DNA from: Armatimonadia bacterium
GTDB lineage: Bacteria; Armatimonadota; Zipacnadia; Zipacnadales; UBA11051
DNA length: 13,785 nucleotides
Reading direction: 5' to 3'
NCBI GenBank assembly: GCA_039683575.1
Contig: JBDKRC010000126.1
Location: 1-13,785 of the forward strand
Shown: positions 3 to 13,784 of the stretch, one piece after another
Layout: every line of letters begins with the position of its first letter
Position numbering within the stretch: position 1 is the first letter of the stretch
Program-made: the position numbers and the translations under genes
Notes under the pieces: generated by a model
Database searches by the model: none
Told to the model about the DNA's origin: nothing
Seen by the model: only the letters and a program-made list of their open reading frames with translations

Positions 3-260
3 CGAGAGCGGCACATTGACACTGTGGTCATCTGCGGCTGGATGACGCAGATGTGCTGCGACACCACCAGTCGTCAGGCGGTCCACCTTGGCTTCGCCGT
101 TGAGTTCCTCAGCGACGCCACGGGCACCCATGCCTTCAGCAACGAGGCAGGCAGCGTCACCGCGGAGGAACTGCACCGCGCGGCACTGGTCGTGCAGGCG
201 AGTCGCTTTGCGAAGGTCATGGGGGTCGAGGCGTGGAGGGAGAGGCTGAGGGGGGAATAG
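3..260 (+). CDS. Isochorismatase-family cysteine hydrolase, 5'-truncated by the window edge
   Basis: Frame is open from base 3 ([40 protein letters not shown]). It matches the family's D-T-V-V-I-x-G-x-x-T-x-x-C-x-x-T-T-x-R-x-A...G-x-x-V-x-x-x-x-D-A motif with the catalytic Cys. Stop TAG at 258-260. Confidence 0.9.
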
Positions 261-409
261 CTTGTCAGGATGGACAGGATAACGGCGGATGGGCAGGATG
301 GGAAAAGGTGACTATGGGGAGAGGCCGCGATGGTGTGATGGGCTAGTCGTAGGTACTGGGTCGCGCACGGAAGCTGCTTGTCAGGATGGACAGGATAACG
401 GCGGATGGG
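260..409. repeat. Perfect 34-bp direct repeat GCTTGTCAGGATGGACAGGATAACGGCGGATGGG at 260-293 and 376-409
   Basis: Read directly. The copies are 82 bp apart, and a partial third copy lies at 1169-1189. Confidence 0.95.
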
Positions 410-445
410 GGATCAGATCGGGGCGAACCGGGGTACCAAATAGGG

Positions 446-451
446 TATAAT
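446..451 (+). promoter_or_regulatory. Putative sigma70 -10 box (TATAAT) upstream of the prepilin gene
   Basis: Perfect TATAAT in high-GC DNA, 42 bp before the ATG at 494, with GGAGG RBS at 482-486. No canonical -35 seen. Confidence 0.55.
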
Positions 452-493
452 CACGCGGCGCAGGATGCGCAGTTATCTTCTGGAGGATAGTGC

Positions 494-1135
494 ATGCAAC
501 GCAGAGGTTTCACATTGATCGAGCTTTTGGTCGTGATCGCCATCATCGCCATCTTGGCGGCGATACTGTTCCCGGTGTTTGCCAAGGCGCGGGAGAAGGC
601 CCGGCAGTCGAGCTGTCTGAGCAATCTCAAGCAGTTGGCGCTGGCGAACTTGTCTTACGCACAGGACTATGATGAGCGGGTTGTGCCGCTGAACCTGGGT
701 GGGCAGTACTGGACGGCGCTGCTCATGCCGTACATGAAGAACACGCAGGTGTACCAGTGTCCGAGCATGTCGAACCTGACCTATGCGTACGCGCCGGTCT
801 TCCCCACCTTTTCGGCAGATTCGAACTGGGGTGGTGCGGCGTATGCCAACAAGTCACAGAGTCTCGGAGCGGTGGAGTATCCGGCCGATGCGATCTTCAT
901 GATGGAGGCGCAGAACGGGGCGAGTAACCCGCCGACAAACGCCAACTGCATCTACTGCCTGAGGAATTACGCGACGTCGCCGGGGCTGGGAACGACGTGG
1001 GGCATCCCGTCGCCGGGGCGGCATAATGATGGCAATAACGCGGCTTTCGCTGACGGCCACTGCAAGTGGCTGAACAACTCCACGCTGCTGAACCGCAGCG
1101 CGGACATCTGGCAGAAGCAGCCGCCTAGCATCTAG
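494..1135 (+). CDS. Prepilin-type N-terminal cleavage/methylation and H-X9-DG domain protein (DUF1559-like)
   Basis: N-terminus [46 protein letters not shown]-terminal [17 protein letters not shown] (H-X9-DG); GGAGG RBS. Confidence 0.95.
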
Positions 1136-1157
1136 CGCGACGACTGACTTCCGGGGA

Positions 1158-1189
1158 CTGCCGGGGAGATAGCTTGTCAGGATTGACAG
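1158..1189. repeat. Diverged copy of 246-277 (end of the isochorismatase gene plus downstream bases)
   Basis: CTGCCGGGGAGATAGCTTGTCAGGATTGACAG vs CTGAGGGGGGAATAGCTTGTCAGGATGGACAG: 27/32 identical, and 20/21 in the last 21 bp. Confidence 0.8.
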
Positions 1190-1242
1190 TCCTCATGGCG
1201 GATTCTCCGGCGCCCTGAACGAATCAAAGCTCTTCGCACGCT

Positions 1243-1335
1243 TCTGTCATTCTGAGCGAAGCGAAGAATCCCGACCACCGACACGTGGAGATTCTTCGCT
1301 TGCCGCACGAGTACGTGCGGGCTCAGAATGACAGA
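1243..1335. repeat. Branched palindromic REP/MITE-like element (TGTCATTCTGAGC...GCTCAGAATGACA type)
   Basis: 15-bp terminal inverted repeat 1243-1257/1321-1335, inner 11-bp stem 1260-1270/1290-1300, and a 7-bp hairpin at 1303-1320. Confidence 0.85.
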
Positions 1336-1369
1336 GCATTTCCGGAGCAGGATGGGGACAGGTAACTAC

Positions 1370-1398
1370 GGGGAGAGACCATTTGGTCTCTCCCCTTT
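1370..1398 (+). terminator. Probable intrinsic terminator hairpin between convergent genes
   Basis: GGGGAGAGACC-ATTT-GGTCTCTCCCC (11-bp perfect stem) followed by TTT; the U-tract is short. Confidence 0.55.
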
Positions 1399-1456
1399 CG
1401 CGTTCTGGGAAGGTTATCATGGGGCGTCCGCGGACGGTCGCGAGGTGGGCGTCGGA

Positions 1457-1480
1457 TCGCGCTCTGGTGAGCGCTCCTAC
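1457..1480 (-). repeat. GTAG-type REP-like palindrome, copy 1
   Basis: Minus strand reads GTAGGAGCGCTCACCAGAGCGCGA. Related copies at 2896-2920, 5043-5068 and 10666-10688. Confidence 0.75.
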
Positions 1481-2781
1481 AGGCTACCGGGGTGGCGGCT
1501 CTCTTTTGGGGGCCTAGCGCGGGATAGGAGGCGGTGAAGGGGCAGTCCGGCGGCGAGGGTTGTGAGGGGCATGTAGGGGACGCGCCAGCGGCTGTGGCCC
1601 TGGAGGAAGGCTACGGCTCCGGCGTAGAGCAGGGAGAGGAGGATGAGGCAGGCGAGGGACCTCAACTGAGGGTTGCGGGCCAAGACGAAGAGGCTACAGA
1701 AGGCGAGGAGCATCGTGGCGGTGCCAATGATGGCGGAGACGGCGGTCAGGGCTGCCGGGTTGGTGGTGAGGGCCGACAGGTAGCCCTTGCCGGGGCCGAG
1801 GATGGTGCCGAGGAAGCTTCGCACGAAGAGCTTAGCGGTGAGGGCCGGGTTGTCGCGGAAGATGGTAAGGGCCATGCTGGTCATCAGGCGGGAGTCGGTG
1901 AACTGGGACTGGGGTGTGCCGGTGATCCGGGCGCGGGCTTCGTCCCCTATGCGGTCAATGGCCTGATCCTGGCTGATACCGTCCCTGGCGGCCACGACGG
2001 CGGAGGCGTTGAAGAGCAGGAGGCAGTTGCCCGCGCCGGAAGAGAATTGGGGCGCGCCGAAGACGAGGGAGTTGCGTACAACCCAGGGGGTGAGGACGAG
2101 GAAGTATGCCGCGAGGAGGCAGGCGGCGCTTTTGAGGCTGAGGTACTTGCCGGCGCGCCAGTAGTGCAAGGCGGTGCAGGCGGCGAGGACAAGGGGCCAG
2201 AGCAGGGCGGCGGTGCGGACGTAGGCGGAGAGGGCGGCGAGGGCGCCGGTGGCGAGGAGGAGGAGCGTGGTGCGACGACCGGAGGATCGCCAGGCTGAGG
2301 CCAGCGCCCAGACGGCGAGGAGGTTGATGAGGGCGGCGAGGGTTTCGGTGAGGAAGAGGTTGGCGTAGATGACGCTGGGGAGGTCGATCGCGAGCAGGAG
2401 GCCGCCTGCTAACCCGGCTACGGGACCGGCGAGACGGTAGCCGAGGAGGCAGACGAGGCCGGCGGTGAGGGAACTGAGGACGATCTGGAGGAGGAGAACG
2501 GCCTGCGGGCGGTGGCCGAGGAGACGGTAGACGAGGGCGATCAGGGCGGGGTAGCCCGGCCCTCGCTCGGCGGCGGGAGCAAGGGCCGCGGGGTCGGCGG
2601 ATTCGCTGTAGACGCCGTGGAGGGCGAGGTTGAGGCCGAGGCGGTCGTAGGTCGGGGAGTCGATGTTGGTGAAGGCGAAGGGCGTGGTGGTGCTGAGGCG
2701 GTCGTGGCGGGTGACGGTGGCGTAGACCGCGAGACGGCAGATGAGGGCAAGGGTGACGACGATGATCAGGTGTTTGCGCAT
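1477..2781 (-). CDS. Multi-pass membrane glycosyltransferase, GT-C fold (ArnT/PMT-like, glycosyltransferase family 39-type)
   Basis: 434 aa with many hydrophobic segments. Motifs DSPTY..., RGPGYP.L.A..Y...G, LTETL, PW..RN and R.R.P are typical of bacterial PMT-like proteins. Confidence 0.8.
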   Translation of the reverse strand: MRKHLIIVVTLALICRLAVYATVTRHDRLSTTTPFAFTNIDSPTYDRLGLNLALHGVYSESADPAALAPAAERGPGYPALIALVYRLLGHRPQAVLLLQIVLSSLTAGLVCLLGYRLAGPVAGLAGGLLLAIDLPSVIYANLFLTETLAALINLLAVWALASAWRSSGRRTTLLLLATGALAALSAYVRTAALLWPLVLAACTALHYWRAGKYLSLKSAACLLAAYFLVLTPWVVRNSLVFGAPQFSSGAGNCLLLFNASAVVAARDGISQDQAIDRIGDEARARITGTPQSQFTDSRLMTSMALTIFRDNPALTAKLFVRSFLGTILGPGKGYLSALTTNPAALTAVSAIIGTATMLLAFCSLFVLARNPQLRSLACLILLSLLYAGAVAFLQGHSRWRVPYMPLTTLAAGLPLHRLLSRARPPKESRHPGSL

Positions 2782-2798
2782 GGTTGTGGACGGTGGGG

Positions 2799-2850
2799 CC
2801 TCGGCCCCGGCCCCTCCCCGTCAGACCGCAGGCGGTCTGCTGGAGAGGGG
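2799..2850. repeat. CCCCGGCCCCTCCCC...GGAGAGGGG palindromic element with inner hairpin
   Basis: CCCCTCCC (2811-2818) pairs imperfectly with GGAGAGGGG (2842-2850); inner CAGACCGC/GCGGTCTG inverted repeat at 2822-2839. Confidence 0.6.
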
Positions 2851-2895
2851 ATCAGCGGGTCGCAGGTGTCGGTTACCCCTGACGTTAGTCGGTGA

Positions 2896-2920
2896 GGTCG
2901 CGATCGGTGATCGCTCGTAC
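2896..2920 (-). repeat. GTAG-type REP-like palindrome, degenerate copy 2
   Basis: Plus strand GGTCGCGATCGGTGATCGCTCGTAC; GCGATC/GATCGC stem; flanked by AGG as in copy 1. Confidence 0.6.
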
Positions 2921-2934
2921 AGGCGGTCTTCAGA

Positions 2935-2959
2935 GAAGCAAACGTCGCTTCGCGCTCCA
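2935..2959 (-). repeat. Hairpin + GCGCTCCA (GGAG-type) REP-like unit
   Basis: GAAGC-AAACGTC-GCTTC-GCGCTCCA has the same layout as 12781-12803. Confidence 0.5.
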
Positions 2960-2976
2960 TGCGGCAGAGGCAACGA

Positions 2977-4050
2977 CTAGACTGGGCGGAGGTCTGGGAC
3001 TTCTACCGGGATGCTGCCCTGCTCGGCGGAGAGATGGGCGCAGATGCCGGGGAGGGTCTGGTCGAGGCCCTCGTAGACGTCAATCGGCGGCTTGGTGTCG
3101 TCGAGAATGCAGCGGATGAAGTCGTTGACCATGTAATACTCGGAGGTACCGTGGCCGCCCTTGAAGGCTTCCGGCGGGGCACCCTTGTGGGTGTCGGAGA
3201 GCGGGAGCTCGATCTGGCCGGCGAGGTGCGGGATGTCCTCGCGGTAGAGGCGGTGCTTGGCGCCGGGGAAGCGGGGGCTCTCGATCTGGCCCTTGGTCCC
3301 GTAGAGGACGAACCAGTGGTGGGCGGGCTCCTTGGCGACGGAGAAGCCGCAAAGCTGCTTGATGACGTTCCCCTTGGCGGTCTTGAAGATCCCCACTTCC
3401 ATGTCGATGACGCCGAGGTCGGGGCGGCGGCGGTTGCCGGTGTGCATGCCTACGGCGGAGACGACGCGATCCTGCATGATCATGAGCAGCGGGCCGAGGT
3501 CATGGGTGGGATAGAGAATTGGCGGCAGGGAGGCGCGCCAGGTCTTCTGGAGCTTGCCATCGGGGCCGGTCTCTTGCATGAGGCTTTCGCAGTTGTGGAT
3601 GTACTCGCCCTCGGCGTAGATGATCTCGCCGAGGTCGCCGCGCTGGATCATGGTGCGATAGGCGTCAACCCAGGCGTAGTAGCAGACGTTCTCGGCGAAC
3701 ATGTACTTGAGACCGGACTTCTCGACGGCGGCGGCGAGGTCGCGGGCCTGCTCGAGGCTGTAGGCGGCGGGGACCTCGGACATGATGTGCTTGCCGTGGG
3801 CGAGGGCCTCGAGGGCGCAGGGGACGTGGGTGGGGCCGGGAGTGGCGATCAGAATGGCGTCGAGGTCGGCCTCGCAGAACTTGGTGTAGTCATCGAACCA
3901 GTACGGGACGTCGTGTTCGGCCGTCCAGGACTTGGCGAGCTCGGTCTTGAGGTCGCAGCCAGCGACGACCTGGCAGTCTTTGTGGTTGAGAAAGACATTG
4001 GCGACACCGGCGCCACGGCGGAGGCCGGCGATACCGACTTTGAGGGACAT
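2977..4050 (-). CDS. Gfo/Idh/MocA family NAD(P)-dependent oxidoreductase
   Basis: Likely start MSLKVGIAGL at 4050 with AAGGAG 9 nt upstream. Motifs LDAILIATP..H, GKHIMSEVP, GDLGEI.Y.EGEY.H and YPTH.LGP. The ORF-track extension to 4206 is translated repeat sequence. Confidence 0.93.
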   Translation of the reverse strand: MSLKVGIAGLRRGAGVANVFLNHKDCQVVAGCDLKTELAKSWTAEHDVPYWFDDYTKFCEADLDAILIATPGPTHVPCALEALAHGKHIMSEVPAAYSLEQARDLAAAVEKSGLKYMFAENVCYYAWVDAYRTMIQRGDLGEIIYAEGEYIHNCESLMQETGPDGKLQKTWRASLPPILYPTHDLGPLLMIMQDRVVSAVGMHTGNRRRPDLGVIDMEVGIFKTAKGNVIKQLCGFSVAKEPAHHWFVLYGTKGQIESPRFPGAKHRLYREDIPHLAGQIELPLSDTHKGAPPEAFKGGHGTSEYYMVNDFIRCILDDTKPPIDVYEGLDQTLPGICAHLSAEQGSIPVEVPDLRPV

Positions 4051-4125
4051 GGGAGAAGGCTCCTTGGTGAGAGGTTGGAGGGGAGGTTCGACGGTGGGGG
4101 GAGGTTGGCCTTCTAGGGGAGAAGG

Positions 4126-4180
4126 GCGGGAACAGATGAGGCGGGAACGCGGGAACGGGTGAGGCGGGAACGGGAACGGC
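4126..4180. repeat. Short tandem GGGAAC-unit repeats
   Basis: Five GGGAAC units, including two TGAGGCGGGAACG(C)GGGAACGG-like blocks. A related GAGGCGGGGAACGGGGAACGG lies at 7802-7822. Confidence 0.7.
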
Positions 4181-4251
4181 GAGAGGGGGCAAGGAGGGTG
4201 CCGCATGTACGGCTACGGCGGTTAGGAGAGGGAGGTTGGAGTTCGCGGAGG

Positions 4252-4341
4252 GCGAAAACGGGGACAGACACCATTTTCGCATGGGAGTTAGTAGGTGATG
4301 GTTGGGAAGGTTGCGAAAGTGGTGTCAGTCCCCATTTTCGC
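4252..4341. repeat. REPIN-like doublet: two inverted 29-bp imperfect palindromes
   Basis: 4252-4280 GCGAAAACGGGGACAGACACCATTTTCGC vs the reverse complement of 4313-4341 GCGAAAATGGGGACTGACACCACTTTCGC: 26/29 identical, 32-bp spacer. Confidence 0.85.
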
Positions 4342-4356
4342 GTCGGTGATAACGGC

Positions 4357-4395
4357 GGGCCGGATGCCGACAGTGAGGCTGTCGGCATCCGGCCC
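4357..4395. repeat. Perfect 17-bp stem-loop just upstream of the large gene
   Basis: GGGCCGGATGCCGACAG-TGAGG-CTGTCGGCATCCGGCCC; no U-tract on either side. Confidence 0.85.
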
Positions 4396-4412
4396 CTCCA
4401 TGGGAGAATGAC

Positions 4413-7400
4413 ATGAAGTGGTATGGGCTGTGGCTGATGGCAATCTTCGTGGCTGGCTGGGTTTGGGCGCAGGGGGAGTGGCGGACGTCGGCGGCGGAGT
4501 TTGCGGAGACTGTGGCGGTGCCGGAGGGGAAGGGGGCGGTTGTGGCGGCGGTGCGGGTTGGCGAGGCTGGGGTGAAGATTGTGGTTGAGGGGACGGAGGG
4601 GGCGAAGAGGACGCTTACGTTGAGGGCGTTTGCAGATACGCTGCCGGCGGCAGGGGCGGCTGAGGCTAAGGAGTTGCCAGAGGCGGGGGTTGAGGTGGTT
4701 GAGGCGCGACTGCGGTACTATGTGCGGCCGAAGGTGGCGATGCTTAAGGGGGAGGCTCGGGAGAAGTGTGTGAAGGAGTGGGCGGGGATGCCGTCGGCGG
4801 GGACGCGCGGGGTAATGGTGGGGGCTGTGAACTATGGAGGCGGAGTGGCGCTCACGATTGAGGGGCGGTATGCGGGGATGGTGTTGGAGAAGGGGAAGGT
4901 GCGGTCGGTGCAGTTTGTGGTGAAGCCGGGGTCGGGGTTGGGAGGAGTGCGGGTTGAGGAGAGGGTGGAGGACGGGAGGTTTTGGAGGGTGGATTTGGGG
5001 GAGGTTGGTGAGGCGGGTTCCCTCGTTGGTGAGTTGGGCTCCGGTCGCGCTCAGGGGAGCGCTCCTACCGGGTTGCCAGGGGTTGCCGGGTGGGATTTGG
5101 GGAGGACTGCGGGGCAATCGGCGGCGTATTCCGAGTATACGAATCGGACGGGGTTTGATGGGCTTGGGGAATCGTTCATTGTTACGGTGCCGTCGGCGCA
5201 GTGGGTGCGGGCGTGGGTGCTTTGTGCGGCTGAGGAGGGTAAGGACACGGGGTTTACGGCGCGGTTGACGCGGTTTGTGCCGGGTGGGGCTTATACGGGG
5301 AGGGCGCGGGAGTGTCTGGCGGATACTGAGGTGCAGTTGCCGAGGGTGGGAGAGATGGCGGCGCCGGGGGTTGAGCGGGCTGGTGAGGTGACGCTGGGGG
5401 GGAAGAAAGTGCCGCTGTATCTGGTTGAGGTACCACTTAAGGCCGGGGATATTCAGGATCTGATCTTTGATGAGACGGCGAAGAACTGGCGGGGGATGCC
5501 GGGGCTCAGGGGTTACCTGGACTTTGAGATGCTCGGGAGGTTGAAGGAGCAGGATCGGCCGCATCCGTTTGGGGATGGGCGGTACTTCCCTGACCCGGCG
5601 CGGGTTAGCGGGGTCCATGTCTTTGGGGTGACGCTGGAGAAGACGCCGGTGGAGATGGAAGTGCGGCAGACGCAGCCGGGCAATATCTTCCAGGGCGATG
5701 AGGCGCCGGAGTTGCGGGTGGTTTTGCGGCCTAAGAAGGATGGGGCGTACAAGGTCAAGTGGGCGATGCGGGATGTGGATGGGAAGGCTTGTGGCTCGGG
5801 AGAGAAGACGCTGAGCTTGAAGGCGGGGGAGGCCGAGGTGACGGTGCCGGTTGCTCTGCGGCAGCCGCAGGTGGGGTGGTACGGGATTGCGCTGGGGCTG
5901 TGGGAGGGAGAGCGGGAGTTGGTGTGTCATGAGGCGAGCTTTGCGCTCCTGCCAAAGGACACGCGGCAGGCGGGGTATGAGTCGCCGTATGGGACATGGT
6001 GGTTTGATCACCACTATGGGACGGATGATGCCAAGATCATCGGGCCGATGATCCTGAAGGCGGGGTTCCGGAAGGTTGCCTATGCGGTGGCCCGGCACAA
6101 TGAGGCGGAGTTGGCTCCGTGGAAGTTCACGGCGGCCTCGGTTGGCTGGGGGGCGCTCAATAGGCCGAATGCTACGGATGAGGAGATTGCGGCGAAGATC
6201 GCCGAGACGATGAAGGCGTACCCGCACTGCGACAATTTGATGATCTTCCATGAGAGCATGCCGAATGCGCCGTTGGGGACGCGGACGGCGCCGGAACTGT
6301 TTGGGATGCCGGTGCAGGAAGCGGCGGGGGCGGAGGAGCGCTGGGCGCTGGCGACGCGGATCGCCAGGATTGCGCGGGCCAGGTTTCCGGGGTTGAGGAT
6401 ATACATTGGGAACTCGGGAGCGTCGTCGGAGCTGATTGCGGAGGGGATGCGGCGGAAGTTTCCGGCGGAGTATGCGGATTACATCGGTATTGAGACGGTG
6501 GGTAGGACTGGGCACCCGGAGAAGCTGTGGGAAGGCGGGTTGGGGGGCGTGTGGCTGCTGCGGGAGACGGCGCGGAAGTTCGGGTATCCATGGGGCGTGA
6601 CGAGCTGCTTTGAGACGAATTACCGGGAGGAGAGGCTGCTCGGACCGCAGCGGCTGGCGGAGTGGTATGTGCGGGATGTGCTGCTATCGCATGCGTACAG
6701 GTTCCCCCATATCGCGATTGCGCTTCTGCATGACACGGGCAACAGCTACAACGGGTCGTTCTGGGGCGGGACGGGGCTTTGTCAGCGGTATCCGCTGCTC
6801 TACCCGAAGCCGGCGTATGTGGCGATGGCGACGGTGACGCGGGTGCTGGACCGGGTGACTCTGAAACGGGAGGTGCCGACGGGGTCGAATTGCGTGTATG
6901 CGCTGGAGATGGCGCGGGCGGATGGGAAGACGGTGTACCCGGTATGGACGGCGCGGGGAACGGCGGTTTTGAGCGTGGCGATGAAGGGGTGTAAGAGCGT
7001 TGGGGTGGTGGACCTGTATGGGCGGAGCAGGACGGAGGCGGTGAAGGGCGGGAAGGTGGCGCTGGAGGCGGGGACGGCGGTGCAGTATGTGGTGACCGAG
7101 GGGAAGGTGACGGGGATTGTGTGTGGGAGACGGAGCTACCCCGACGATGCGCCGCCGAGGAGCTTCAGGATGGTTGACGCCATGAAGGACGTGCGGGAGT
7201 GGAAGCTGGCGACGGAGAAGGACCCGCTGATCGAGCAGACAGCGCAGCCACATCTCCCCTATCGCACGGCGGGGGAATTCGTCGTGCGAGGGGCTAAAGA
7301 TGCGCAGGTGGGCGAGTGTGTGGAGGTTGAGTTGGTGCCGCGGAAGGATTTGCCGACGCCGCTTCTGGGCCAGTATGGGATGCTGAGGCTGGCCAAGCCG

Positions 7401-7802
7401 GTGGTGCTGGAGGGAGAGCCGACGACGCTGGGGATGTGGGTGAAGGGGAATTCGGGGTGGGGCGACGTGTGGTTCGAGACGGAGGATGCGGCGGGAGTGC
7501 GGCGGGTGTCGTGCGGGACGGTGATGCACGATGCGGATGTGTATGACTATGACGGGCGAGTCGCAGTCAACTTCGATGGGTGGGCGTTTTTGAGCTTCCC
7601 GATGACCGACAAGTCGCCGATACCGGATCTGTCGACCGGGAGTGTGGGGAATCTGTGGGAGGCGACGGATCGGAGTAAGGCGGTGCAGTATCCGGTGAAG
7701 CTGACGGGGATTGGGTTCTGTGTGAGGCAGGACGTGATGGGGTTGACGGAGATGAAGCCGATGCGGCAGGTTCTGCGGTTTGGTGGGGTTGGGGCGTACT
7801 AG
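4413..7802 (+). CDS. Large secreted hypothetical protein (1129 aa), possibly glycoside hydrolase-like
   Basis: Signal-peptide-like N-terminus (MKWYGLWLMAIFVAGWVWA|Q) and GGGAGA RBS. Layout suggests an Ig-like segment (GNIF...), a central alpha/beta region ending GL...PKPAYVA (reminiscent of GH39/clan GH-A proteins) and a C-terminal beta-sandwich (LGMWVKGN...VNFDGWAFLSF). Function is inferred only. Confidence 0.8.
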   Translation: MKWYGLWLMAIFVAGWVWAQGEWRTSAAEFAETVAVPEGKGAVVAAVRVGEAGVKIVVEGTEGAKRTLTLRAFADTLPAAGAAEAKELPEAGVEVVEARLRYYVRPKVAMLKGEAREKCVKEWAGMPSAGTRGVMVGAVNYGGGVALTIEGRYAGMVLEKGKVRSVQFVVKPGSGLGGVRVEERVEDGRFWRVDLGEVGEAGSLVGELGSGRAQGSAPTGLPGVAGWDLGRTAGQSAAYSEYTNRTGFDGLGESFIVTVPSAQWVRAWVLCAAEEGKDTGFTARLTRFVPGGAYTGRARECLADTEVQLPRVGEMAAPGVERAGEVTLGGKKVPLYLVEVPLKAGDIQDLIFDETAKNWRGMPGLRGYLDFEMLGRLKEQDRPHPFGDGRYFPDPARVSGVHVFGVTLEKTPVEMEVRQTQPGNIFQGDEAPELRVVLRPKKDGAYKVKWAMRDVDGKACGSGEKTLSLKAGEAEVTVPVALRQPQVGWYGIALGLWEGERELVCHEASFALLPKDTRQAGYESPYGTWWFDHHYGTDDAKIIGPMILKAGFRKVAYAVARHNEAELAPWKFTAASVGWGALNRPNATDEEIAAKIAETMKAYPHCDNLMIFHESMPNAPLGTRTAPELFGMPVQEAAGAEERWALATRIARIARARFPGLRIYIGNSGASSELIAEGMRRKFPAEYADYIGIETVGRTGHPEKLWEGGLGGVWLLRETARKFGYPWGVTSCFETNYREERLLGPQRLAEWYVRDVLLSHAYRFPHIAIALLHDTGNSYNGSFWGGTGLCQRYPLLYPKPAYVAMATVTRVLDRVTLKREVPTGSNCVYALEMARADGKTVYPVWTARGTAVLSVAMKGCKSVGVVDLYGRSRTEAVKGGKVALEAGTAVQYVVTEGKVTGIVCGRRSYPDDAPPRSFRMVDAMKDVREWKLATEKDPLIEQTAQPHLPYRTAGEFVVRGAKDAQVGECVEVELVPRKDLPTPLLGQYGMLRLAKPVVLEGEPTTLGMWVKGNSGWGDVWFETEDAAGVRRVSCGTVMHDADVYDYDGRVAVNFDGWAFLSFPMTDKSPIPDLSTGSVGNLWEATDRSKAVQYPVKLTGIGFCVRQDVMGLTEMKPMRQVLRFGGVGAY
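5043..5068 (-). repeat. GTAG-type REP-like palindrome, copy 3, inside the CDS
   Basis: Plus strand GGTCGCGCTCAGGGGAGCGCTCCTAC, same TCGCGCTC-N4-GAGCGCTCCTAC layout as 1457-1480. Confidence 0.75.
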
Positions 7803-7837
7803 AGGCGGGGAACGGGGAACGGAAGGCGACGGTTGCT

Positions 7838-9058
7838 TTACTGCGCCGGCGTCTCGTTCACGATCACTAACGCCGGACGCGAGGTGCGCTGTGCTCCCAG
7901 CGCATCGGTGGCCATCACGAAGAAGCCGTGGACGCCCGGCCTGAGACCGGTCAGAACGAAACGCGCCGGTCCCGACGCAGTCTCGGCCAGCTTCTGCGCA
8001 CCGTCGTAGAGCGCGATCTGCCGCCATCCCGGCAGACCGGTGTCGTCTGCGGTGACAGTCAGGTTCGCTCCGGCATTGAGCACCCAGATGGCGCCCGATG
8101 GTGGGTTCGTGAGTCTCAGGGCGGGCGCGAAGGTGGCGTAGGCCCGGTAGATGAAGGCGGTATCCTCATCGGGAAGCCAACTGGTCGTTGCAGCCCTGGC
8201 GCCGGGGTCGGCATAGGGTGTAAGGCTCGTCAGCCCACTCCGCCAACTCGTGTTGTCAGCCAACCAGCCGGACGACAGGTCCAGCGTATTGAGGGCCACC
8301 GGACCCTGCCGAGGATCGGCCTGTGCAGGATAGCGCAGGCGTATGCAGTGGTCGAGGAACGGGATCGCAAGCGTAGCCTGGTCAGACTCGCGATGGGCCT
8401 GCCCTTCGACCATCGCCCAGGCAAAGTGCGCCCCACGAGGCCTGTGAGTCTGCATCGTCTCGGTCAGCAACGGGTTCAGACGCTCTTCCTGCTCACCCGA
8501 AAACATGCATACCGGCACGTCGAGCGCCGCCACCGGAACTTCCATGCGCATCGCCGATGACAGGGGGGCACTGGCAATCACCCGCTCCGGAAGCGTGTTC
8601 ACCAGCCTGTTCGCGAATCCCCCACCAGCAGAAAAGCCATAGGCCACGAAAGGGACGTCCACCAGTTCCGGGTGCCCGCTCTCGCCGGCGAAACGCTCCA
8701 AAGCATGCTCAAGGACAGTGACTGAGCCGACGTGAGAGTTGAACGCCCGGGCGCCGAGGAAGCCAAGGCCATGAAGCGCTGCGAAGGCCCTCAGGTACGG
8801 CAAGGTGTAGCGCTCGCGTGTGTCGCCGCCAGCCGCATTGGTGTTCACCAGCAGGCCGCGAATGGTCTCCAGACCAAGCGGGACAGCCAAGCGCACCGCC
8901 TTTTCCTGCCCTTCGTCAACCTCCGAGTAGTCATACGTAGCGAAGCCGACGGTGGACCCGGCGACCTGGGCTGCGGCGATCCCCGTGGCCGCTGCGAGCA
9001 GGAAGCCCACGAGCGCCCCAAGCCACCGGGTGGGTATCGTGACGGATTTGTATTTCAT
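7838..9058 (-). CDS. Secreted alpha/beta-hydrolase-fold protein with probable C-terminal Ig-like domain
   Basis: Start MKYKSV at 9058 with GGAGG 6 nt upstream; signal peptide ending AAA|Q; nucleophile elbow YGFSAGG; SGEQE and GQAH as candidate acid/His motifs; C-terminal G.H....ATD..GA..TS.P. Confidence 0.8.
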   Translation of the reverse strand: MKYKSVTIPTRWLGALVGFLLAAATGIAAAQVAGSTVGFATYDYSEVDEGQEKAVRLAVPLGLETIRGLLVNTNAAGGDTRERYTLPYLRAFAALHGLGFLGARAFNSHVGSVTVLEHALERFAGESGHPELVDVPFVAYGFSAGGGFANRLVNTLPERVIASAPLSSAMRMEVPVAALDVPVCMFSGEQEERLNPLLTETMQTHRPRGAHFAWAMVEGQAHRESDQATLAIPFLDHCIRLRYPAQADPRQGPVALNTLDLSSGWLADNTSWRSGLTSLTPYADPGARAATTSWLPDEDTAFIYRAYATFAPALRLTNPPSGAIWVLNAGANLTVTADDTGLPGWRQIALYDGAQKLAETASGPARFVLTGLRPGVHGFFVMATDALGAQRTSRPALVIVNETPAQ

Positions 9059-9082
9059 CTTAGGCCTCCGCAGCTTGACGCC

Positions 9083-9168
9083 TAGCGTGGGGCTGGGGGG
9101 CGGTAGCTCCATGACTGCCACTTCATCAGGTCGAGGAGGTGGGCGAAGTCGAGGCCCGCGCGGCGGTT
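9083..9168 (-). repeat. Orphan 86-bp duplicate of the 3' end of gene 10704-12143
   Basis: 82/86 identical to 10705-10790. Encodes NRRAGLDFAHLLDLMKWQSWSYRPPAPR* vs NRRAGLDFTHLFDLMKWQSWSYRPPAPR*. Confidence 0.97.
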
Positions 9169-9202
9169 TGAGTGTCCGTCCGGGACGGAGCGGGCCAGAG
9201 GC

Positions 9203-9847
9203 CTATTGCGGCATGGTGTTCGGCTGCGCGGTCCAGCCCGTCCAGGCGCGGTCCAGCATTGTGCGGGTGTTGATCCACTTGGCGTGGCCGTCGCAGAACA
9301 CGACGTTGTTCCCGCCGTTGTGCCGGCCGGGTACCGGTATCCCATTGTAGGGGTAGGTAGCGCTCTGGGGGATGGCGAAGATGCGTGGCGAGTAGTAGAA
9401 ATCCATCTGGACCGCTTGACCCGTGGCGTCGTAGTTCTCGCTCTCCCCTATCAGGAGGGCATCGGCCGGAGCGCTGATGCTCCCCAGCGCGGCTCCGCCC
9501 TTCCCGGTTCCACCCCCATTGTCCGGCATCAGATTGAAGTAACTGCAGCCATAGCCCAGAGTGAGTGTGCTACTGGGGCACCGGTAGATCTGCGTGTTCT
9601 TGATATACGGGGACATGAGGTACAGCCAGCTCTGGTATGCAGGCGGGAAGTTCATCGGGGGTAGCTTTTCGTCGAAATCCTGGGCGTAGGACAGCAGAGC
9701 GGTACCCAGTTGCCGGGCGTTGGCCAGACAGGAGGACTGGCGGGCCTTTTCGCGGGCCTTGGCGAAGACTGGGAAGAGGATCGCCGCGAGGATGGCGATG
9801 ATGGCGATGACTACCAGCAGTTCAATGAGAGTGAAGCCACGTCGCAT
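9203..9847 (-). CDS. Prepilin-type N-terminal cleavage/methylation and H-X9-DG domain protein (DUF1559-like), paralog of 494-1135
   Basis: [43 protein letters not shown]...; C-terminal [26 protein letters not shown]. Confidence 0.95.
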
Positions 9848-9944
9848 GGATATGCCTCCTGAATGATGGGCGCATCAGCAGTGGTGTTCGAGACCGATGG
9901 AGTCACTTCCTGCCAAGCCTCTCCGGAAACAGAGAGTGCGAATG

Positions 9945-10541
9945 TTAGCTTGTTAGTATCTGCAACCGTGCCAGACGACGGCCCAGGCCCTGCGCAGCCT
10001 TGAGCGCGAACTCATCCCCGGCGACCTGGCCCGGGGCGGCGGCCTGGCCGATGACCTCCCAGTTACCGTACGGCAGGCAAGCCGGGCCCAGCACGATCAT
10101 CCCGTGGTTGAAGCAGAAATCCATCACGGACCTCGCCGCCAGTTCCTGCCCGCCCCAGCGGCCTTCGCCCACCGCAATCACGCTGGCTGTGCGGTGCTGC
10201 AGAGTGTTCTCAGGGGACCAGATGGGCCGCGTACGGTCGATGAGCGCCTTGAGTTGAGCGCTCATGCCGCCCATGTAGGTGGGGGTGCCGAAGATGATCG
10301 CGTCCGCCCACAGCATCGCGGTCAAAACGGTGGACATGTCATCGTCAATGATACAGCGTTCGCCGGCAGCATGGTCCACGCAGTTCGCGCAGGCCTGGCA
10401 CGGGGCGATCTGAAGGTTGCATAGCTCAAGTAAGCGCGTCTCCGCGCCTTCGGCGGCCGCTGCCTCCAGACAACTGTTGCATAGCAAGGCAGTGTTGGAG
10501 TTGTGCCTGGGGCTTCCTGAGATGGCAAGTATGTGCTTCAT
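9945..10541 (-). CDS. Flavodoxin-family / iron-sulfur flavoprotein (NADPH-dependent FMN reductase fold)
   Basis: Start MKHILAISGSPR..SNT at 10541 (GAAGGGG upstream). CQACANC-x8-C.I.DDM motif; ADAIIFGTPTY.G.MSAQLKALIDR; GGQE. Confidence 0.92.
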   Translation of the reverse strand: MKHILAISGSPRHNSNTALLCNSCLEAAAAEGAETRLLELCNLQIAPCQACANCVDHAAGERCIIDDDMSTVLTAMLWADAIIFGTPTYMGGMSAQLKALIDRTRPIWSPENTLQHRTASVIAVGEGRWGGQELAARSVMDFCFNHGMIVLGPACLPYGNWEVIGQAAAPGQVAGDEFALKAAQGLGRRLARLQILTS

Positions 10542-10593
10542 ATGGTGCTGCCCCTTCCGAGAGTTCGTGCTCCCTGCATTGCGGAGTAAGGCC

Positions 10594-10658
10594 ACCCAGA
10601 TGGTCGCGCGGCGGGGTAGCGGATTCTACCCAGATGGTCGTAGATGGTCGCGCGGCGG
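10594..10658. repeat. Local triplication of AGATGGTCG
   Basis: ACCCAGATGGTCG at 10594 and 10628; AGATGGTCGCGCGGCGG at 10598 and 10642. Confidence 0.85.
10623..10628 (-). promoter_or_regulatory. Possible -10 box (TAGAAT) for the flavoprotein-prepilin pair
   Basis: Minus strand GGGTAGAATC resembles GGGTATAATC at 443-452; about 80 bp upstream of the ATG at 10541. Confidence 0.35.
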
Positions 10659-10665
10659 ACGGTAC

Positions 10666-10688
10666 GTCCGCACGGGGAGCGCTCCTAC
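10666..10688 (-). repeat. GTAG-type REP-like unit, copy 4 (partial palindrome)
   Basis: GGGGAGCGCTCCTACCGG is shared exactly with the copy at 5054-5071. Confidence 0.7.
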
Positions 10689-10703
10689 CGGCGGCAATGG
10701 CGG

Positions 10704-12143
10704 TTAGCGTGGGGCTGGGGGGCGATAGCTCCATGATTGCCACTTCATCAGGTCGAAGAGGTGGGTGAAGTCGAGGCCCGCGCGGCGGTTGGTTGAGCCG
10801 AAGCGGCGTTCGGCGATTGCCGGTTCGTCTACGCATATGGGCAGCATGGGAACCGGCGGGATTGTCACCGCGAGCGGGAGGTTGCCTGTGTCGGCGGACT
10901 GGATGATGAACTCGGCGGCAGCGTGGAGGAGTTCGGCGGGGCCGAGGTCGGTGAAGCTGGCGCGGAGCTGGCCCTTCAGGCGGCGCTGGTCGGACATGAT
11001 GGCGTAGGAGGTGAGGGCGCCGGCGAAGAGGTCCTCGCGGGAGATTGTCAGTGGGGCGCTCAGGTGCAGAGGGTGCTCGGTCGGGCCGAGGAGGCGCTGC
11101 ACCGGCACGCGGTCGGGCCACTTGCCGTATTCCCAACAGTACTGCAGGGCAAAGCAGAGCAGGCCAGCGATGTCAGCGCAGGAGAAGCTGGTGTCGCTAG
11201 CGGCGACGTAATTGAAGCTCGCGCGGACGGCGCGGGCGAGGGTTACCGTTTGCTCCCAGGTGAGCCAGCGGACGGGGTCCTCCTCGTTGCGGTCGCAGAG
11301 GCTGGCGTAGTTCGTGAGGTTCACGCCGGGGAGGGTCTTGAGCCAGCGAAGAGTACGGCGCACGAACTCGAAGGCATTGGCCTGGTCTTCCGGAGAGCGA
11401 GGCTGCATTTTGCGGAAGTGGCCGGGGCGAGGGTATGGGCCCGCGGAGCCGTTGCGGAAGAGCACGGCTTGCTCAGCGAGCGCCCATTCGGCGGTGACCC
11501 AGCAGACCGGATGGCCTGCGAAGGCTATGAAGTCCCTTGTCTGCGCCATGGCCTCAAACCGTTCCTGAATAGCTCGCAGGTCGGCTTGCGGGTCGCATGG
11601 GGGTTTGAGCTGATCCGGTTTGGTCGGGTCCACGCGGTGGAAGCAAGTGCCCTGGCTGGAAAGGCTGCAGCCCAAGCGGGGCCACGAGGGCCAGTCCATG
11701 ATCCAGCCGCGCATGCCGTCGCCCCAACAGCGAACACCGGCGAGTTTGTAGGCGTAGTACAGCGGCGGGCATTGCTGTTCCTGATGGCAGCACCAGGCTG
11801 CGGGGAACTGGCCGGTGATGTCGGCGACGTCGTGCAGGCCGGGGAGTTCGACGCTGAGGGCGTAGCTGACGGCGTCGTCCCAGGAGAGATCGGTGCCGTA
11901 GTGCAAGGCGGGCTCGGGGAAGTCGCCCCAGTAGTTGCCGTGGAAGCAGATCTCGTGTGGGCGCATGGCCTCGATGACGTCGAAGCGGCCACGGCGGCGG
12001 AGGGCACGGGCTTTCTCGCCTGCGATGAACAGGGAAACCGGGACTTCCTCCTCGGTGAAGATGCGGCAGAGCTGCAGAGCCGCGTCGTCAGACTCCGGAT
12101 GCACCACATCTTCAACGTCAAAAACAAAGACCACGTCTGTCAT
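10704..12143 (-). CDS. Hypothetical protein with N-terminal NodB/polysaccharide deacetylase-like domain
   Basis: VVFVFDVED (motif 1-like), SLFIAGEKA and HEICFHG; GGAGG RBS immediately after the upstream stop, so probably operonic. Confidence 0.75.
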   Translation of the reverse strand: MTDVVFVFDVEDVVHPESDDAALQLCRIFTEEEVPVSLFIAGEKARALRRRGRFDVIEAMRPHEICFHGNYWGDFPEPALHYGTDLSWDDAVSYALSVELPGLHDVADITGQFPAAWCCHQEQQCPPLYYAYKLAGVRCWGDGMRGWIMDWPSWPRLGCSLSSQGTCFHRVDPTKPDQLKPPCDPQADLRAIQERFEAMAQTRDFIAFAGHPVCWVTAEWALAEQAVLFRNGSAGPYPRPGHFRKMQPRSPEDQANAFEFVRRTLRWLKTLPGVNLTNYASLCDRNEEDPVRWLTWEQTVTLARAVRASFNYVAASDTSFSCADIAGLLCFALQYCWEYGKWPDRVPVQRLLGPTEHPLHLSAPLTISREDLFAGALTSYAIMSDQRRLKGQLRASFTDLGPAELLHAAAEFIIQSADTGNLPLAVTIPPVPMLPICVDEPAIAERRFGSTNRRAGLDFTHLFDLMKWQSWSYRPPAPR

Positions 12144-12155
12144 GGTTAGCCTCCG

Positions 12156-13784
12156 TCAGGGCTTGAGGGACTTCCCGGGGACGTAGGGGAAGGGCGGCGG
12201 GATGATTTGGGCGGCAGTGCGGTAGGTCTGGTTGTAGAGGGCGTCGTACTGCTCGACGGGTAGAGTAAGGCGCAGAGGGTGCCTGGTGTAGACGCGCAGG
12301 ACCTCGTGACTGTCGCGGGTGACGCTGAGGAGACCGCGGAAGCCGAGGGAGCGCATGAGGCGGTCAGGGTAGAGGTCGTATTGTTCGGGGATGACAGCGG
12401 CCTGAACGCGGACGGCGTTGTCGAGGAGGACGGGTTTGCGGGCAGGCTGGTCTATGTAACCGCCGGTGAGGGCCTCGCGGCCAAGGTACCAGTAGGCGAC
12501 CGAGGGGTCGTGGGCGACGAAGACCGGGACGGCGGGCGCGAGGTTCTGGCGGACCCAGTAGCCCGCGGTCTTCATGCCGGAGTTGGGGACGAGGCCGCCG
12601 TAGGGGATCTTGGGCGAAGGATACAGGGGGACGAAGGCGGGCACGCGGAAGACGCCGCCAAGGGTGGTGGCGGCGGTGGCGAGGACTATCAGGAGGCCGA
12701 GGACTGGGAGGGCACGGCGCGGAGCGGACAGGGATGCCCCTGCGACGGGGACGTCGCTTGGCGTACCTGCGGCTCCGGAGGCGGGCAGGATGCCCGCGCT
12801 CCAAACGGCGGAGAGAGAACGACAAGAGGAGAAGGCGAGGCCGATGAGGAGGCAGAGGGCGGCGGTCAGGTGGTGGTGGTAGCCGGAGGCTTCGGTTACC
12901 TTGCTGGTAACGGCGATCACGAACGGGAGGGCGGTCAGGCCGATCCAGGCCAGGAGCCATTGGTAGCGGCGGTCGCGGAAACAGCGGCGAAGCAGGATGA
13001 GGGCGACGGGAACGGCGATCAGGGCGACGAGGCCGAGGTTGACCCAGAGGTCGCGGAGGAACGGGATGAGGTGCAGGCCCCAGTCGGCTTTGTGCTCGCT
13101 GAGCATGGTGCCGAGGAAAGTCTGGTCGGGATAGCCGAGCTTGAGGGCGTAGAGGTAGACCGGGATGTAGGGCGCGAAGAGGACGATTGGCGGTAGGAGA
13201 GTGCCCGGGCGCACGAGGAGGCGGCGGAGGCCGCTGCAGCCGGTGTAGCCCTCGGGACGGGGCCAGAGGAGCACGAAGGCGATCAGGACGGAGCCGGTGA
13301 CGGCGAGTTGGACGTCGGCGCACATCCACAGGCCGACGGCGAGGCCGGCGAGCCACTGGCGGCGGGGGCTGCCGGGGGCTTCCCAGTAGCGCATGAGCAT
13401 CAGGACGGAGAGGACGAAGAGGAAGCCGTTGGCGGCCTCGGCGCCACCGATGGTACGGTGGCGGCCCACAAGGAGCGGAATGACGGCGAAGAGCGCGGCG
13501 GCGAGGAGGCCGGGGGTGTCGGTGCCATTGGCGAAGCGGCGAGCGACGAAGAAGACCAGCAGGCAGGTCAGGGCGCCGAGAATGACGAGCACGCCGGGAA
13601 GGGTGGCCTCGTTGACGGGCAGGTTGAGGGCCTCGAGGGCGCGGACGTAGAGGTAGTCGGCGACGAAAAGCGGGTAGCCGTAGTCCCAGCTCATGATCGT
13701 GGCGAGGGCGTTCTCGGAGGGCTGCGGCGAGAGGGGCGAAAGTGCGGCGCTGGTGCCGATGAAGCAGGACCGGAGCGCTTCGTC
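12156..13784 (-). CDS. Multi-pass membrane glycosyltransferase-like protein (GT-C/ArnT-like), 5'-truncated by the window edge
   Basis: Frame stays open beyond the ATG at 13694 to the window end (DEALRSCFIG...), giving a GT-C-like DE motif. Also GYP, GLLAAALFAVIP, many TM segments and a soluble C-terminal domain. Confidence 0.75.
   Translation of the reverse strand, partial: DEALRSCFIGTSAALSPLSPQPSENALATIMSWDYGYPLFVADYLYVRALEALNLPVNEATLPGVLVILGALTCLLVFFVARRFANGTDTPGLLAAALFAVIPLLVGRHRTIGGAEAANGFLFVLSVLMLMRYWEAPGSPRRQWLAGLAVGLWMCADVQLAVTGSVLIAFVLLWPRPEGYTGCSGLRRLLVRPGTLLPPIVLFAPYIPVYLYALKLGYPDQTFLGTMLSEHKADWGLHLIPFLRDLWVNLGLVALIAVPVALILLRRCFRDRRYQWLLAWIGLTALPFVIAVTSKVTEASGYHHHLTAALCLLIGLAFSSCRSLSAVWSAGILPASGAAGTPSDVPVAGASLSAPRRALPVLGLLIVLATAATTLGGVFRVPAFVPLYPSPKIPYGGLVPNSGMKTAGYWVRQNLAPAVPVFVAHDPSVAYWYLGREALTGGYIDQPARKPVLLDNAVRVQAAVIPEQYDLYPDRLMRSLGFRGLLSVTRDSHEVLRVYTRHPLRLTLPVEQYDALYNQTYRTAAQIIPPPFPYVPGKSLKP
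12721..12803. repeat. REP/REPIN-like element inside the CDS
   Basis: Bounded by GGAGCG...CGCTCC; contains GCGGGCAGGATGCCCGC-GCTCCA at 12781-12803 and a GCGACG-GGGA-CGTCGC hairpin. Confidence 0.75.

Follow-up and report, generated by a model that had tools for sequence, protein, structure and literature searches.

Repeated gene ends around two prepilin-type genes of an Armatimonadia contig as possible scars of 3′-end displacement

The locus considered here raises the question of how a gene for a prepilin-type protein comes to stand behind an unrelated resident gene, between copies of a sequence that takes in the end of that very gene. The material is an entire contig (JBDKRC010000126.1) of an Armatimonadia metagenome-assembled genome (MAG), 13,785 nt long with 65% G+C, analysed over its full length and called below the window; in protein searches its closest named relatives belong to Armatimonadia/Armatimonadota. 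Two of its genes, PilA and PilB, encode prepilin-type proteins of the DUF1559 family, and each is enclosed, alone or with a companion, by direct repeats. A preliminary description of the window proposed that such genes spread as small cassettes aimed at gene ends. The reading favoured here, to which we give a probability of about 0.4, is that the direct repeats are recombination scars of the 3′-end (C-terminal) displacement type, and on this reading the prepilin genes are cargo and not agents. The gene map is based on open reading frames (ORFs) and domain scans, Pfam being run on 16 ORFs of the window and NCBIfam on 10. The segment around PilB (unit 2) consists of the following features, given in the order of their coding strand.

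10704..12143, minus strand: X, conserved 479-aa protein of no named family, with 86 homologues
10698..10790, minus strand: R1, the functional gene end of X: its final 87 nt with the TAA stop, and ~6 nt after it
10622..10631, minus strand: box GGGTAGAATC with -10-like TAGAAT, 81 nt before the ATG of F, with GCGACC 17 nt 5′ of the hexamer
9945..10541, minus strand: F, NADPH-dependent flavin mononucleotide (FMN) reductase, flavodoxin-like (Pfam FMN_red, E=1e-32; homologues 75-88% identical)
9203..9847, minus strand: PilB, prepilin-type DUF1559 / H-X9-DG protein of 214 aa (Pfam; TIGR04294)
9076..9168, minus strand: R2, second and presumably displaced 3′ end of X, with the X frame and a TAG stop kept, beginning 34 nt after the PilB stop
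7838..9058, minus strand: Y, secreted 406-aa protein of no family, with an N-terminal signal-peptide-like segment

Read along this strand, X with R1 at its end is followed by a 160-nt spacer carrying the box GGGTAGAATC, then by F, PilB, 34 nt, R2 and Y, all genes being co-oriented and the two repeats enclosing two genes, F and PilB, at a period of 1622 nt. Self-comparison of the window aligns 10698-10790 with 9076-9168 over 93 nt at 92% identity, and blastn reports 86 nt at 95.3% (E=4e-34). The insert is thus flanked by two copies of a gene end while the C-terminus of X itself is intact and conserved, the peptide encoded by R1 being the conserved C-terminus of the X family (alignment of 22 sequences, with 21 homologues). 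On its other side R2 leads directly into the start of Y, whose ATG lies 23 nt after the R2 stop codon with a GGAGG ribosome-binding site. Y itself has no matches in Pfam, NCBIfam or the PDB sequences.

The coding parts of the two copies (10704-10790 and 9082-9168, 87 nt) differ at five positions, T/A, F/L, CAA/CAG, TAT/TAC and TAA/TAG, with no insertions or deletions. Two of these differences are synonymous, two (T/A and F/L) are conservative replacements and one changes the stop codon, the TAG of R2 sitting exactly at the position of the TAA of X with the reading frame kept. All five are transitions, in which A or T is always found in the attached R1 and G or C always in the displaced R2, and such a distribution is the opposite of neutral decay under the usual GC-to-AT mutation bias. 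The frame, the stop and the silent pattern of R2 fit, as weak evidence, two alleles each of which evolved as coding sequence; our binomial estimate for at least three silent changes out of five under neutrality is ~0.1. R2, displaced and presumably non-coding, has the preferred codons CAG and TAC.

The segment around PilA (unit 1) lies at the opposite end of the contig and is built in a more complicated way.

3..260, plus strand: Iso, 3′ part of a gene for an isochorismatase-family hydrolase (Pfam PF00857, E=4e-12), truncated by the contig start, TAG stop at 258-260
246..326, plus strand: R1a, composed of ~13 nt from the end of Iso, the stop codon and ~66 nt beyond it; no fold, z = 0.08
362..409, plus strand: R1b, partial copy, of which 376-409 (34 nt) are 100% identical to 260-293; core GCTTGTCAGGATGGACAGG with TGTC-N6-GACA
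443..452, plus strand: box GGGTATAATC with -10-like TATAAT, 42 nt before the ATG of PilA, with GCGAAC 17 nt 5′ of the hexamer
494..1135, plus strand: PilA, prepilin-type DUF1559 protein of 213 aa (Pfam N_methyl and SBP_bac_10; TIGR02532; H-X9-DG spacing near the C-terminus read in the translation)
1158..1203, plus strand: left block of R1c, beginning 22 nt after the PilA stop, with an in-frame TAG at the position of the Iso stop
1204..1344, no strand assigned: palindromic element of 141 nt, of miniature inverted-repeat transposable element (MITE) or repetitive extragenic palindromic (REP) type, interrupting R1c, as seen from the alignment gap and the fold
1345..1400, plus strand: right block of R1c (1345-1380), running into a terminator-like hairpin (1370-1395) and then TTT

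Aligned without gaps, the repeats of unit 1 match over 32 nt at 84% identity; when the 141-nt insert at 1204-1344 is skipped, the match extends to ~75 nt in two colinear blocks (252-290/1163-1203 and 291-325/1345-1379), and under both gap schemes the score was reached by none of 500 dinucleotide shuffles. The flanking repeats of the two units are accordingly ~75 and 93 nt long and 84-95% identical. The end of the Iso gene makes up only ~13 nt of the unit 1 repeat (four codons and the stop, 11 of 15 positions identical), the remainder being sequence 3′ of the stop, and the third, partial copy R1b (376-409) lies between R1a and R1c. The 19-nt core of the repeat occurs three times in the window, where 0.01 occurrences are expected, and always beside PilA. 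R1c passes into a G+C-rich hairpin that has an 11-bp stem and UUU after it (z = -4.5), while R1a ends at what is the 5′ arm of that hairpin in R1c and has no hairpin fold of its own.

The 141-nt insert folds as one long hairpin (-64.8 kcal/mol, z = -6.5; none of 200 shuffles was as stable) and is therefore a palindromic repeat element, one that landed in the downstream copy of unit 1; it contains GTCATTCTGAGCGAAGCGAAGAATC together with its complement. Another small repeat of the window is an 18-nt element, GGGGAGCGCTCCTACCGG, with a 10-nt palindrome, GGAGCGCTCC, present on the plus strand at 1466-1483, 5054-5071 and 10674-10691. Two of its copies are exact, 0.03 occurrences are expected for its 13-nt core, and it looks like a dispersed repeat of the REP type; one copy is found inside a 1129-aa ORF, in frame as ...GSAPTG..., and another right after the stop of X, at the left end of the unit 2 insert.

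Each unit also begins with a box of the form GGGTAKAATC, which occurs twice in the window against 0.01 expected, a count that is post hoc as the pattern was defined from the same two sites. Both boxes have GCGA(A/C)C 17 nt upstream of the hexamer, they account for two of the three TANAAT hexamers of the window, and each precedes the first gene of its own unit, PilA in unit 1 and F in unit 2. Judging by these sequences, the boxes are putative -10 promoter elements. They have no canonical -35 element, and a scan of the window for consensus sigma-70 promoters returned no sites, R2 included. Beyond the box, the upstream regions of the two units align with a score of 16 against a shuffle mean of 15.9, 155 of 300 shuffles scoring at least as high.

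The anatomy proposed in the preliminary description survives in part. The repeats that it reported 22-34 nt after the prepilin stops are real, beginning 34 nt after the stop of PilB and, at 1158, 22 nt after that of PilA, and the genes of unit 2 are co-oriented as claimed; however, PilB is not directly downstream of X, since F stands between them, and in unit 1 only ~13 nt of the repeat are gene end and a third copy is present. The box attributed to both units, GGGTA(T/G)AATC, does occupy two sites (443-452 and 10622-10631), but that of unit 2 lies upstream of F and not of a prepilin gene, and it is best described as a -10-like element. Its statement that unit 1 and unit 2 have unrelated duplicated sequences is borne out by sequence comparison.

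Nothing in the window resembles the machinery that might have brought these segments in. No integrase, transposase or other recombinase was found among the scanned ORFs, with the reservation that the contig is 13.8 kb long and a gene farther away is possible; the unit 2 insert contains F and PilB only, without a tyrosine or serine integrase. The inserts of the two units share no end motifs, and a comparison of the first 120 nt of each with the reverse complement of its last 120 nt gave no sign of terminal inverted repeats, 242 and 190 of 300 shuffles scoring at least as high as observed. Palindromic end sites of the integron attC type were not found either, the repeats of the units being mutually unrelated, and Rfam gave no matches on the window at E<=1. 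The target duplications known for bacterial transposons are far shorter than 75-93 nt.

Both prepilin-type proteins carry the N_methyl prepilin cleavage and methylation motif (Pfam E=2e-9 for PilA and 9e-9 for PilB; TIGR02532 matches both), and PF07596 (SBP_bac_10/DUF1559) matches both above the gathering score. TIGR04294, the H-X9-DG model, scores 26.5 bits on PilB against a cut-off of 19; for PilA it was not reported at E<=0.001, yet the H-X9-DG spacing is present in the translation. Compared with solved pilins, PilB is matched only over its N-terminal helix. PilB has a 98%-identical counterpart, P0087, apparently of the same species, and its next relative is 64% identical; PilA and PilB are 51% identical, and PilA stands far down the list of PilB homologues. 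Three PilB homologues lie on one 17,592-nt contig, and several share contigs with each other. A tblastn search of a plasmid collection with PilB gave no matches, for which the low-complexity filter may be responsible; a DUF1559 gene is described on two planctomycete plasmids (PMC5352709). Rhodopirellula baltica is reported to have 74 DUF1559 / H-X9-DG genes (PMC2754498) and Tuwongella immobilis 91, evenly spread over the genome (PMC8567305), and the articles consulted on DUF1559 or on Armatimonadota prepilin paralogs give, in their main text, no mechanism for the dispersal of the family. Within the window both prepilins are among the three of ten genes enclosed by repeats, for which we calculate a chance probability of 8/120 = 0.07.

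To find empty sites and further prepilin genes, genome contigs were searched with the X alignment, yielding 31 loci (487,296 nt in all), the source genome not being among them. The best full-length relative of X is 68% identical. Within 10 kb of X, the 31 loci contain neither Y nor F, nor the membrane protein that neighbours X in the window, nor a prepilin gene (tblastn at E<=1e-5; no matches of a GFTLIE-type motif in six frames), and in the 14 closest loci, to which annotation was confined, X is followed by a gene that varies between loci; the spot downstream of X is therefore evolutionarily fluid. Synteny around X is not conserved, and the relatives, at no more than 68% identity, are too distant to show an empty site. 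As to X itself, its predicted fold (predicted local distance difference test score, pLDDT, 84.6) resembles CE4/NodB polysaccharide deacetylases, the best Foldseek match in the PDB being 3rxz_B (E=1.5e-6, template modelling score of 0.54 on the target), and in the 14 closest loci it sits among genes for GH42-like, PL4 lyase, arylsulfotransferase-like and sulfatase proteins; fold model and neighbours together suggest a glycan-processing enzyme. One further locus, L024 (1-5167, labelled Verrucomicrobiota), was considered as a possible polymorphism; it opens with 263 nt 96.6% identical to 11703-11965 of the window (X codons ~60-147) and goes on with unrelated genes, but is uninformative, probably being chimeric or else a fragment that was rearranged. 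Likewise P0221, a protein of 242 aa in which the first two thirds of an F-like flavoprotein (86% identical) are joined to an archaeal flagellin domain, was rejected as a fusion of F with a pilin and most likely stems from a chimeric contig.

The same 31 loci served for a base-rate estimate, in which the last 100 nt of each of 322 genes plus 30 nt beyond were searched for same-strand recurrence within 5 kb downstream. Seven of the 322 genes score at least 50, six of which come from full-length tandem paralogs, two pairs of them, in L012 and L030, and on the opposite strand no gene reaches 40. In the corresponding comparison of flanks within the window, PilA scores 43 and the unit of F and PilB 152, against 16-29 for seven genes other than PilA. 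The architecture is rare, about 1 in 322, and is not specific to prepilins. The seventh high-scoring case is a true look-alike in L021, a Latescibacterota MAG, where two copies of the end of a tetratricopeptide-repeat (TPR)/GWxTD gene enclose a methyladenine glycosylase gene (tag, 6495-7055; Pfam E=2e-40); the copies (6413-6464 and 7063-7114) agree over 52 nt at 85%, or over ~75 nt when weaker similarity up to the stop is counted, and the second is followed by a 17-bp hairpin, with neither box nor prepilin present. A look-alike of another kind was met in L026, a Latescibacterota chromosome, where 41-nt repeats at 9908-9948 and 11461-11501 flank the X homologue; each contains TTGACA and a -10-like hexamer (TACACCAT and TGCACTAT), and they look like two similar promoters before consecutive genes, so that regulatory repeats can mimic the flanking-repeat pattern. 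The repeat elements of the window recur in the related loci only as chance-level 12-15-mers, apart from the expected 3′ ends of X, and a protein-level scan for older displaced gene ends was noisy, just the known cases standing out.

How such scars might arise by 3′-end displacement can be pictured as follows. An incoming segment would derive from a relative that has other genes behind the same conserved gene (X in the case of unit 2, Iso in that of unit 1), and it would pair with the resident gene through the shared sequence. Integration might then proceed by homologous exchange inside the gene combined with an illegitimate join shortly upstream of the resident stop codon, or by a single crossover of a circularised fragment carrying ~75-93 nt of the gene end. 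By either route the incoming end would be fused to the resident gene, the cargo with its own promoter (F and PilB, or PilA) would follow, and the old end would be pushed downstream while staying attached to whatever had followed it, the start of Y in unit 2, the terminator hairpin in unit 1. With a length of 75-93 nt the repeats are long enough for exchange and short enough to escape quick loss by recombination between the copies. Displacement explains why R2 looks like a once-functional allele and why the displaced copies are attached to old downstream signals, and it accounts for the lack of mobility genes and end motifs and for a glycosylase gene with the same scar; prepilins would be seen at this position because they are numerous accessory genes with their own promoters. 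What the sequence itself shows is the repeats and where they lie, the preserved reading frame and stop codon of R2, the hairpin, and a lack of mobility genes and of end motifs; the order of events, the foreign origin of the segments and the route of recombination are inferred.

Several observations weigh against displacement. The G+C content at third codon positions (GC3) is 0.82 for PilA, 0.81 for PilB and 0.79 for F, within the range of 0.76-0.90 of the other genes of the window; there is no compositional sign of foreign origin, which leaves a closely related donor or an old event. An empty site, with X joined directly to Y or Iso to the hairpin, was seen in none of the relatives, so that the direction of the event is read from anatomy alone, and a donor arrangement was not seen either. 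Most of the closest homologues share the T of the attached R1 at the T/A site, and this is hard to reconcile in any simple way with R1 as the foreign allele. For unit 1 a further, earlier step is required, PilA having to be joined at the hairpin loop in the donor already; another reading of this unit is a small intergenic element in repeated form, with three copies, 34 nt 100% identical in two of them and a palindromic core. Finally, the number of look-alikes is small, with one strong case other than tandem paralogs in 322 control genes.

Parallels in described systems help to delimit what is proposed. Integron cassettes are likewise small, mostly carry a single gene, stand in one orientation and are separated by repeats of ~60-120 nt, but attC sites are imperfect palindromes unrelated to the neighbouring genes, and the array lies beside an integrase gene and attI; here the repeats copy the neighbouring gene's own end, and the units bring promoter-like boxes. 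Prophages e14 and 21 integrate in the 3′ end of Escherichia coli icd and supply a substitute gene end. The outcome, two slightly different gene-end copies flanking an insert while the gene stays intact, is that of unit 2 and makes these phages an integrase-driven analogue; they have their own integrase and a short core site, whereas no integrase is found in or near the units of the window, whose inserts measure 0.9-1.6 kb.

Closer to the mechanism favoured here are the rhs genes, where the intact gene is followed by core fragments in direct repeat, for which the authors propose recombination involving circular intermediates (PMC2935791). The displaced orphan 'tips' resemble the present case in that a conserved fragment of the upstream gene stands downstream as a direct repeat without a start of its own, and homologous recombination with incoming, possibly circular DNA was invoked with no dedicated integrase proposed (PMC2935791). 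In rhs, however, a different pair of toxin tip and immunity gene stands behind each repeat, and the G+C content of the DNA that comes in is far lower (PMC2935791); in the window the displaced piece is the homologous gene end only, the cargo consists of whole unrelated genes after a stop codon, GC3 is unremarkable, and neither upstream gene is a polymorphic toxin. For the effector-immunity arrays of the type VI secretion system (T6SS) in Vibrio, homology-facilitated illegitimate recombination with old 3′ ends shifted back was proposed (PMC5361080). The arrays of Vibrio cholerae agree with displacement as envisaged for the window in having a conserved upstream anchor, a shifted old 3′ end together with the downstream gene, and no integrase known; they differ in that intermediate states are present in many strains (PMC5361080), whereas here none was seen and the cargo is unrelated to the anchor gene.

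Among the alternatives, the one that survives best, though we hold it rather unlikely, is insertion behind the gene in a single step, the 75-93 nt of target being duplicated in the same event. A possible route would be two template switches in replication, the fork leaving past the stop codon, copying a prepilin unit elsewhere and returning upstream of its point of exit; repeats would then be identical at birth, and with a source in the same genome this would be a gene-duplication route for the family. One event per unit would suffice, which for unit 1 is more economical than displacement, and the lengths of the repeats are similar in three cases (~75, 93 and, in L021, 52 nt, or ~75 with weaker similarity). 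The mutually unrelated repeat sequences of the units are what target duplications should look like, and if a 3-nt gap is allowed, five nucleotides (CTCAA) may match where R2 has its left junction. The repeats have diverged by 5-16%, however, which predicts a paralog above ~85% identity, and no source copy was found, the best relative of PilB outside its species cluster being 64% identical and PilA and PilB sharing 51%, though in a MAG that may be incomplete this does not decide the matter. The G or C of R2 at all five sites, with frame and stop kept, is also unlike neutral decay, and we know of no bacterial mechanism that makes target duplications of 75-93 nt.

It is also unlikely that no insertion took place at all, the gene order being old and short sequences having been copied locally. 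Unit 1 would then display a small intergenic element or operator-like site (core TGTC-N6-GACA) three times around PilA, and in unit 2 a piece of the X end would have been copied before Y, for example for expression signals of Y. For unit 1 this has some appeal, given three copies on one strand around PilA, with 34 nt 100% identical in two, pointing to recent copying or constraint; the genome has other small repeats (the 18-mer in three copies and the 141-nt palindromic element), and the promoter-like 41-nt repeats of L026 mimic flanking repeats. Even there, the similarity spans two blocks past the palindromic core and ends exactly at the hairpin arm. For unit 2 the difficulty is that the repeat is conserved coding sequence with frame and stop rather than an intergenic element, and the scan found no promoter-like hexamers in the window, R2 included.

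A dedicated system, in which DUF1559 prepilin genes with their promoter box would be moved to gene ends as cassettes by a recombinase encoded elsewhere, we regard as highly doubtful. In its favour are the repeats around both prepilin-bearing units, which begin with the only two strong -10-like boxes of the window, the size of the family and its even spread over a planctomycete genome (PMC8567305), and the literature searched, which as far as it goes holds no published account of how the family spreads. The idea of the preliminary description that prepilins move as small cassettes is retained only to the extent that segments of 0.9 and 1.6 kb look placed behind resident genes, with repeats that overlap the upstream stop, R2 leading into the ribosome-binding site and ATG of Y, R1c leading into a hairpin absent from R1a, and a box in each unit. 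Against a spreading prepilin system, the window has no recombinase, no inverted ends or common end motifs, and no close paralog points to recent copying; the upstream regions beyond the 10-nt box align like shuffles; unit 2 also carries the FMN reductase gene; GC3 is ordinary; and L021 shows the same architecture with a glycosylase gene and no box. The 31 relatives have no prepilin gene within 10 kb of X, which means that this target is not used recurrently, and PilB homologues sharing contigs fit ordinary local duplication as one source of the expansion. The cassette system is not supported beyond the two scars themselves.

That one repeat copy is not real, strain variants having been stitched together in metagenome assembly, is very improbable, for although the window is a whole MAG contig of 13,785 nt, the copies differ at a strain-like 5-8% and the related contig L024 looks chimeric, the novel junctions (from downstream of PilB into R2 and from R2 into Y) would need spanning reads, and a longest contig of 6,943 nt, from the same kind of source, is listed for P0025, a partial X (96%), as well as for P0087, the counterpart of PilB (98%), so that a second, independent assembly may share the arrangement. 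Matching contig sizes were dropped as a proxy for linkage in the case of the 2,451- and 986-nt matches, which are chance-level or physically impossible.

The remaining genes of the window take no part in the two units.

1477-2781, minus strand: PMT_2-like glycosyltransferase
2977-4053, minus strand: Gfo/Idh/MocA oxidoreductase
4413-7802, plus strand: secreted protein of 1129 aa, no family
12156-13694, minus strand: membrane protein of 512 aa

Along the 1129-aa gene (4000-8000) the plus strand has a skew of G over C of 0.25-0.6 per 500 nt, far above that of the other plus-strand gene. The divergent intergenic region 5′ of it (4252-4395) contains two 39-nt repeats of the GCGAAAA...CATTTTCGC type, 74% identical, and, 18 nt ahead of the ATG, an inverted repeat with perfect 17-nt arms (4357-4373 / 4379-4395).

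It is decidedly unlikely that what is seen here generalises to recurrent placement of promoter-bearing accessory genes, above all pseudopilin-like ones, behind stop codons in Armatimonadia and perhaps other DUF1559-rich phyla, with 75-93 nt of target duplicated. If it did, this would be an undescribed mode of insertion in which target duplications are very long and which either does without a recombinase or is served by one encoded elsewhere, and it would explain how a very large family is dispersed around genomes, DUF1559 / H-X9-DG proteins being among the largest paralog families of Planctomycetota and their neighbours. Should the scars be as rare around these genes as in the control loci (1 of 322 genes), the window would hold two ordinary recombination scars; should they be common, they would provide a direct, datable record of accessory genes being slotted into genomes without mobile-element machinery.

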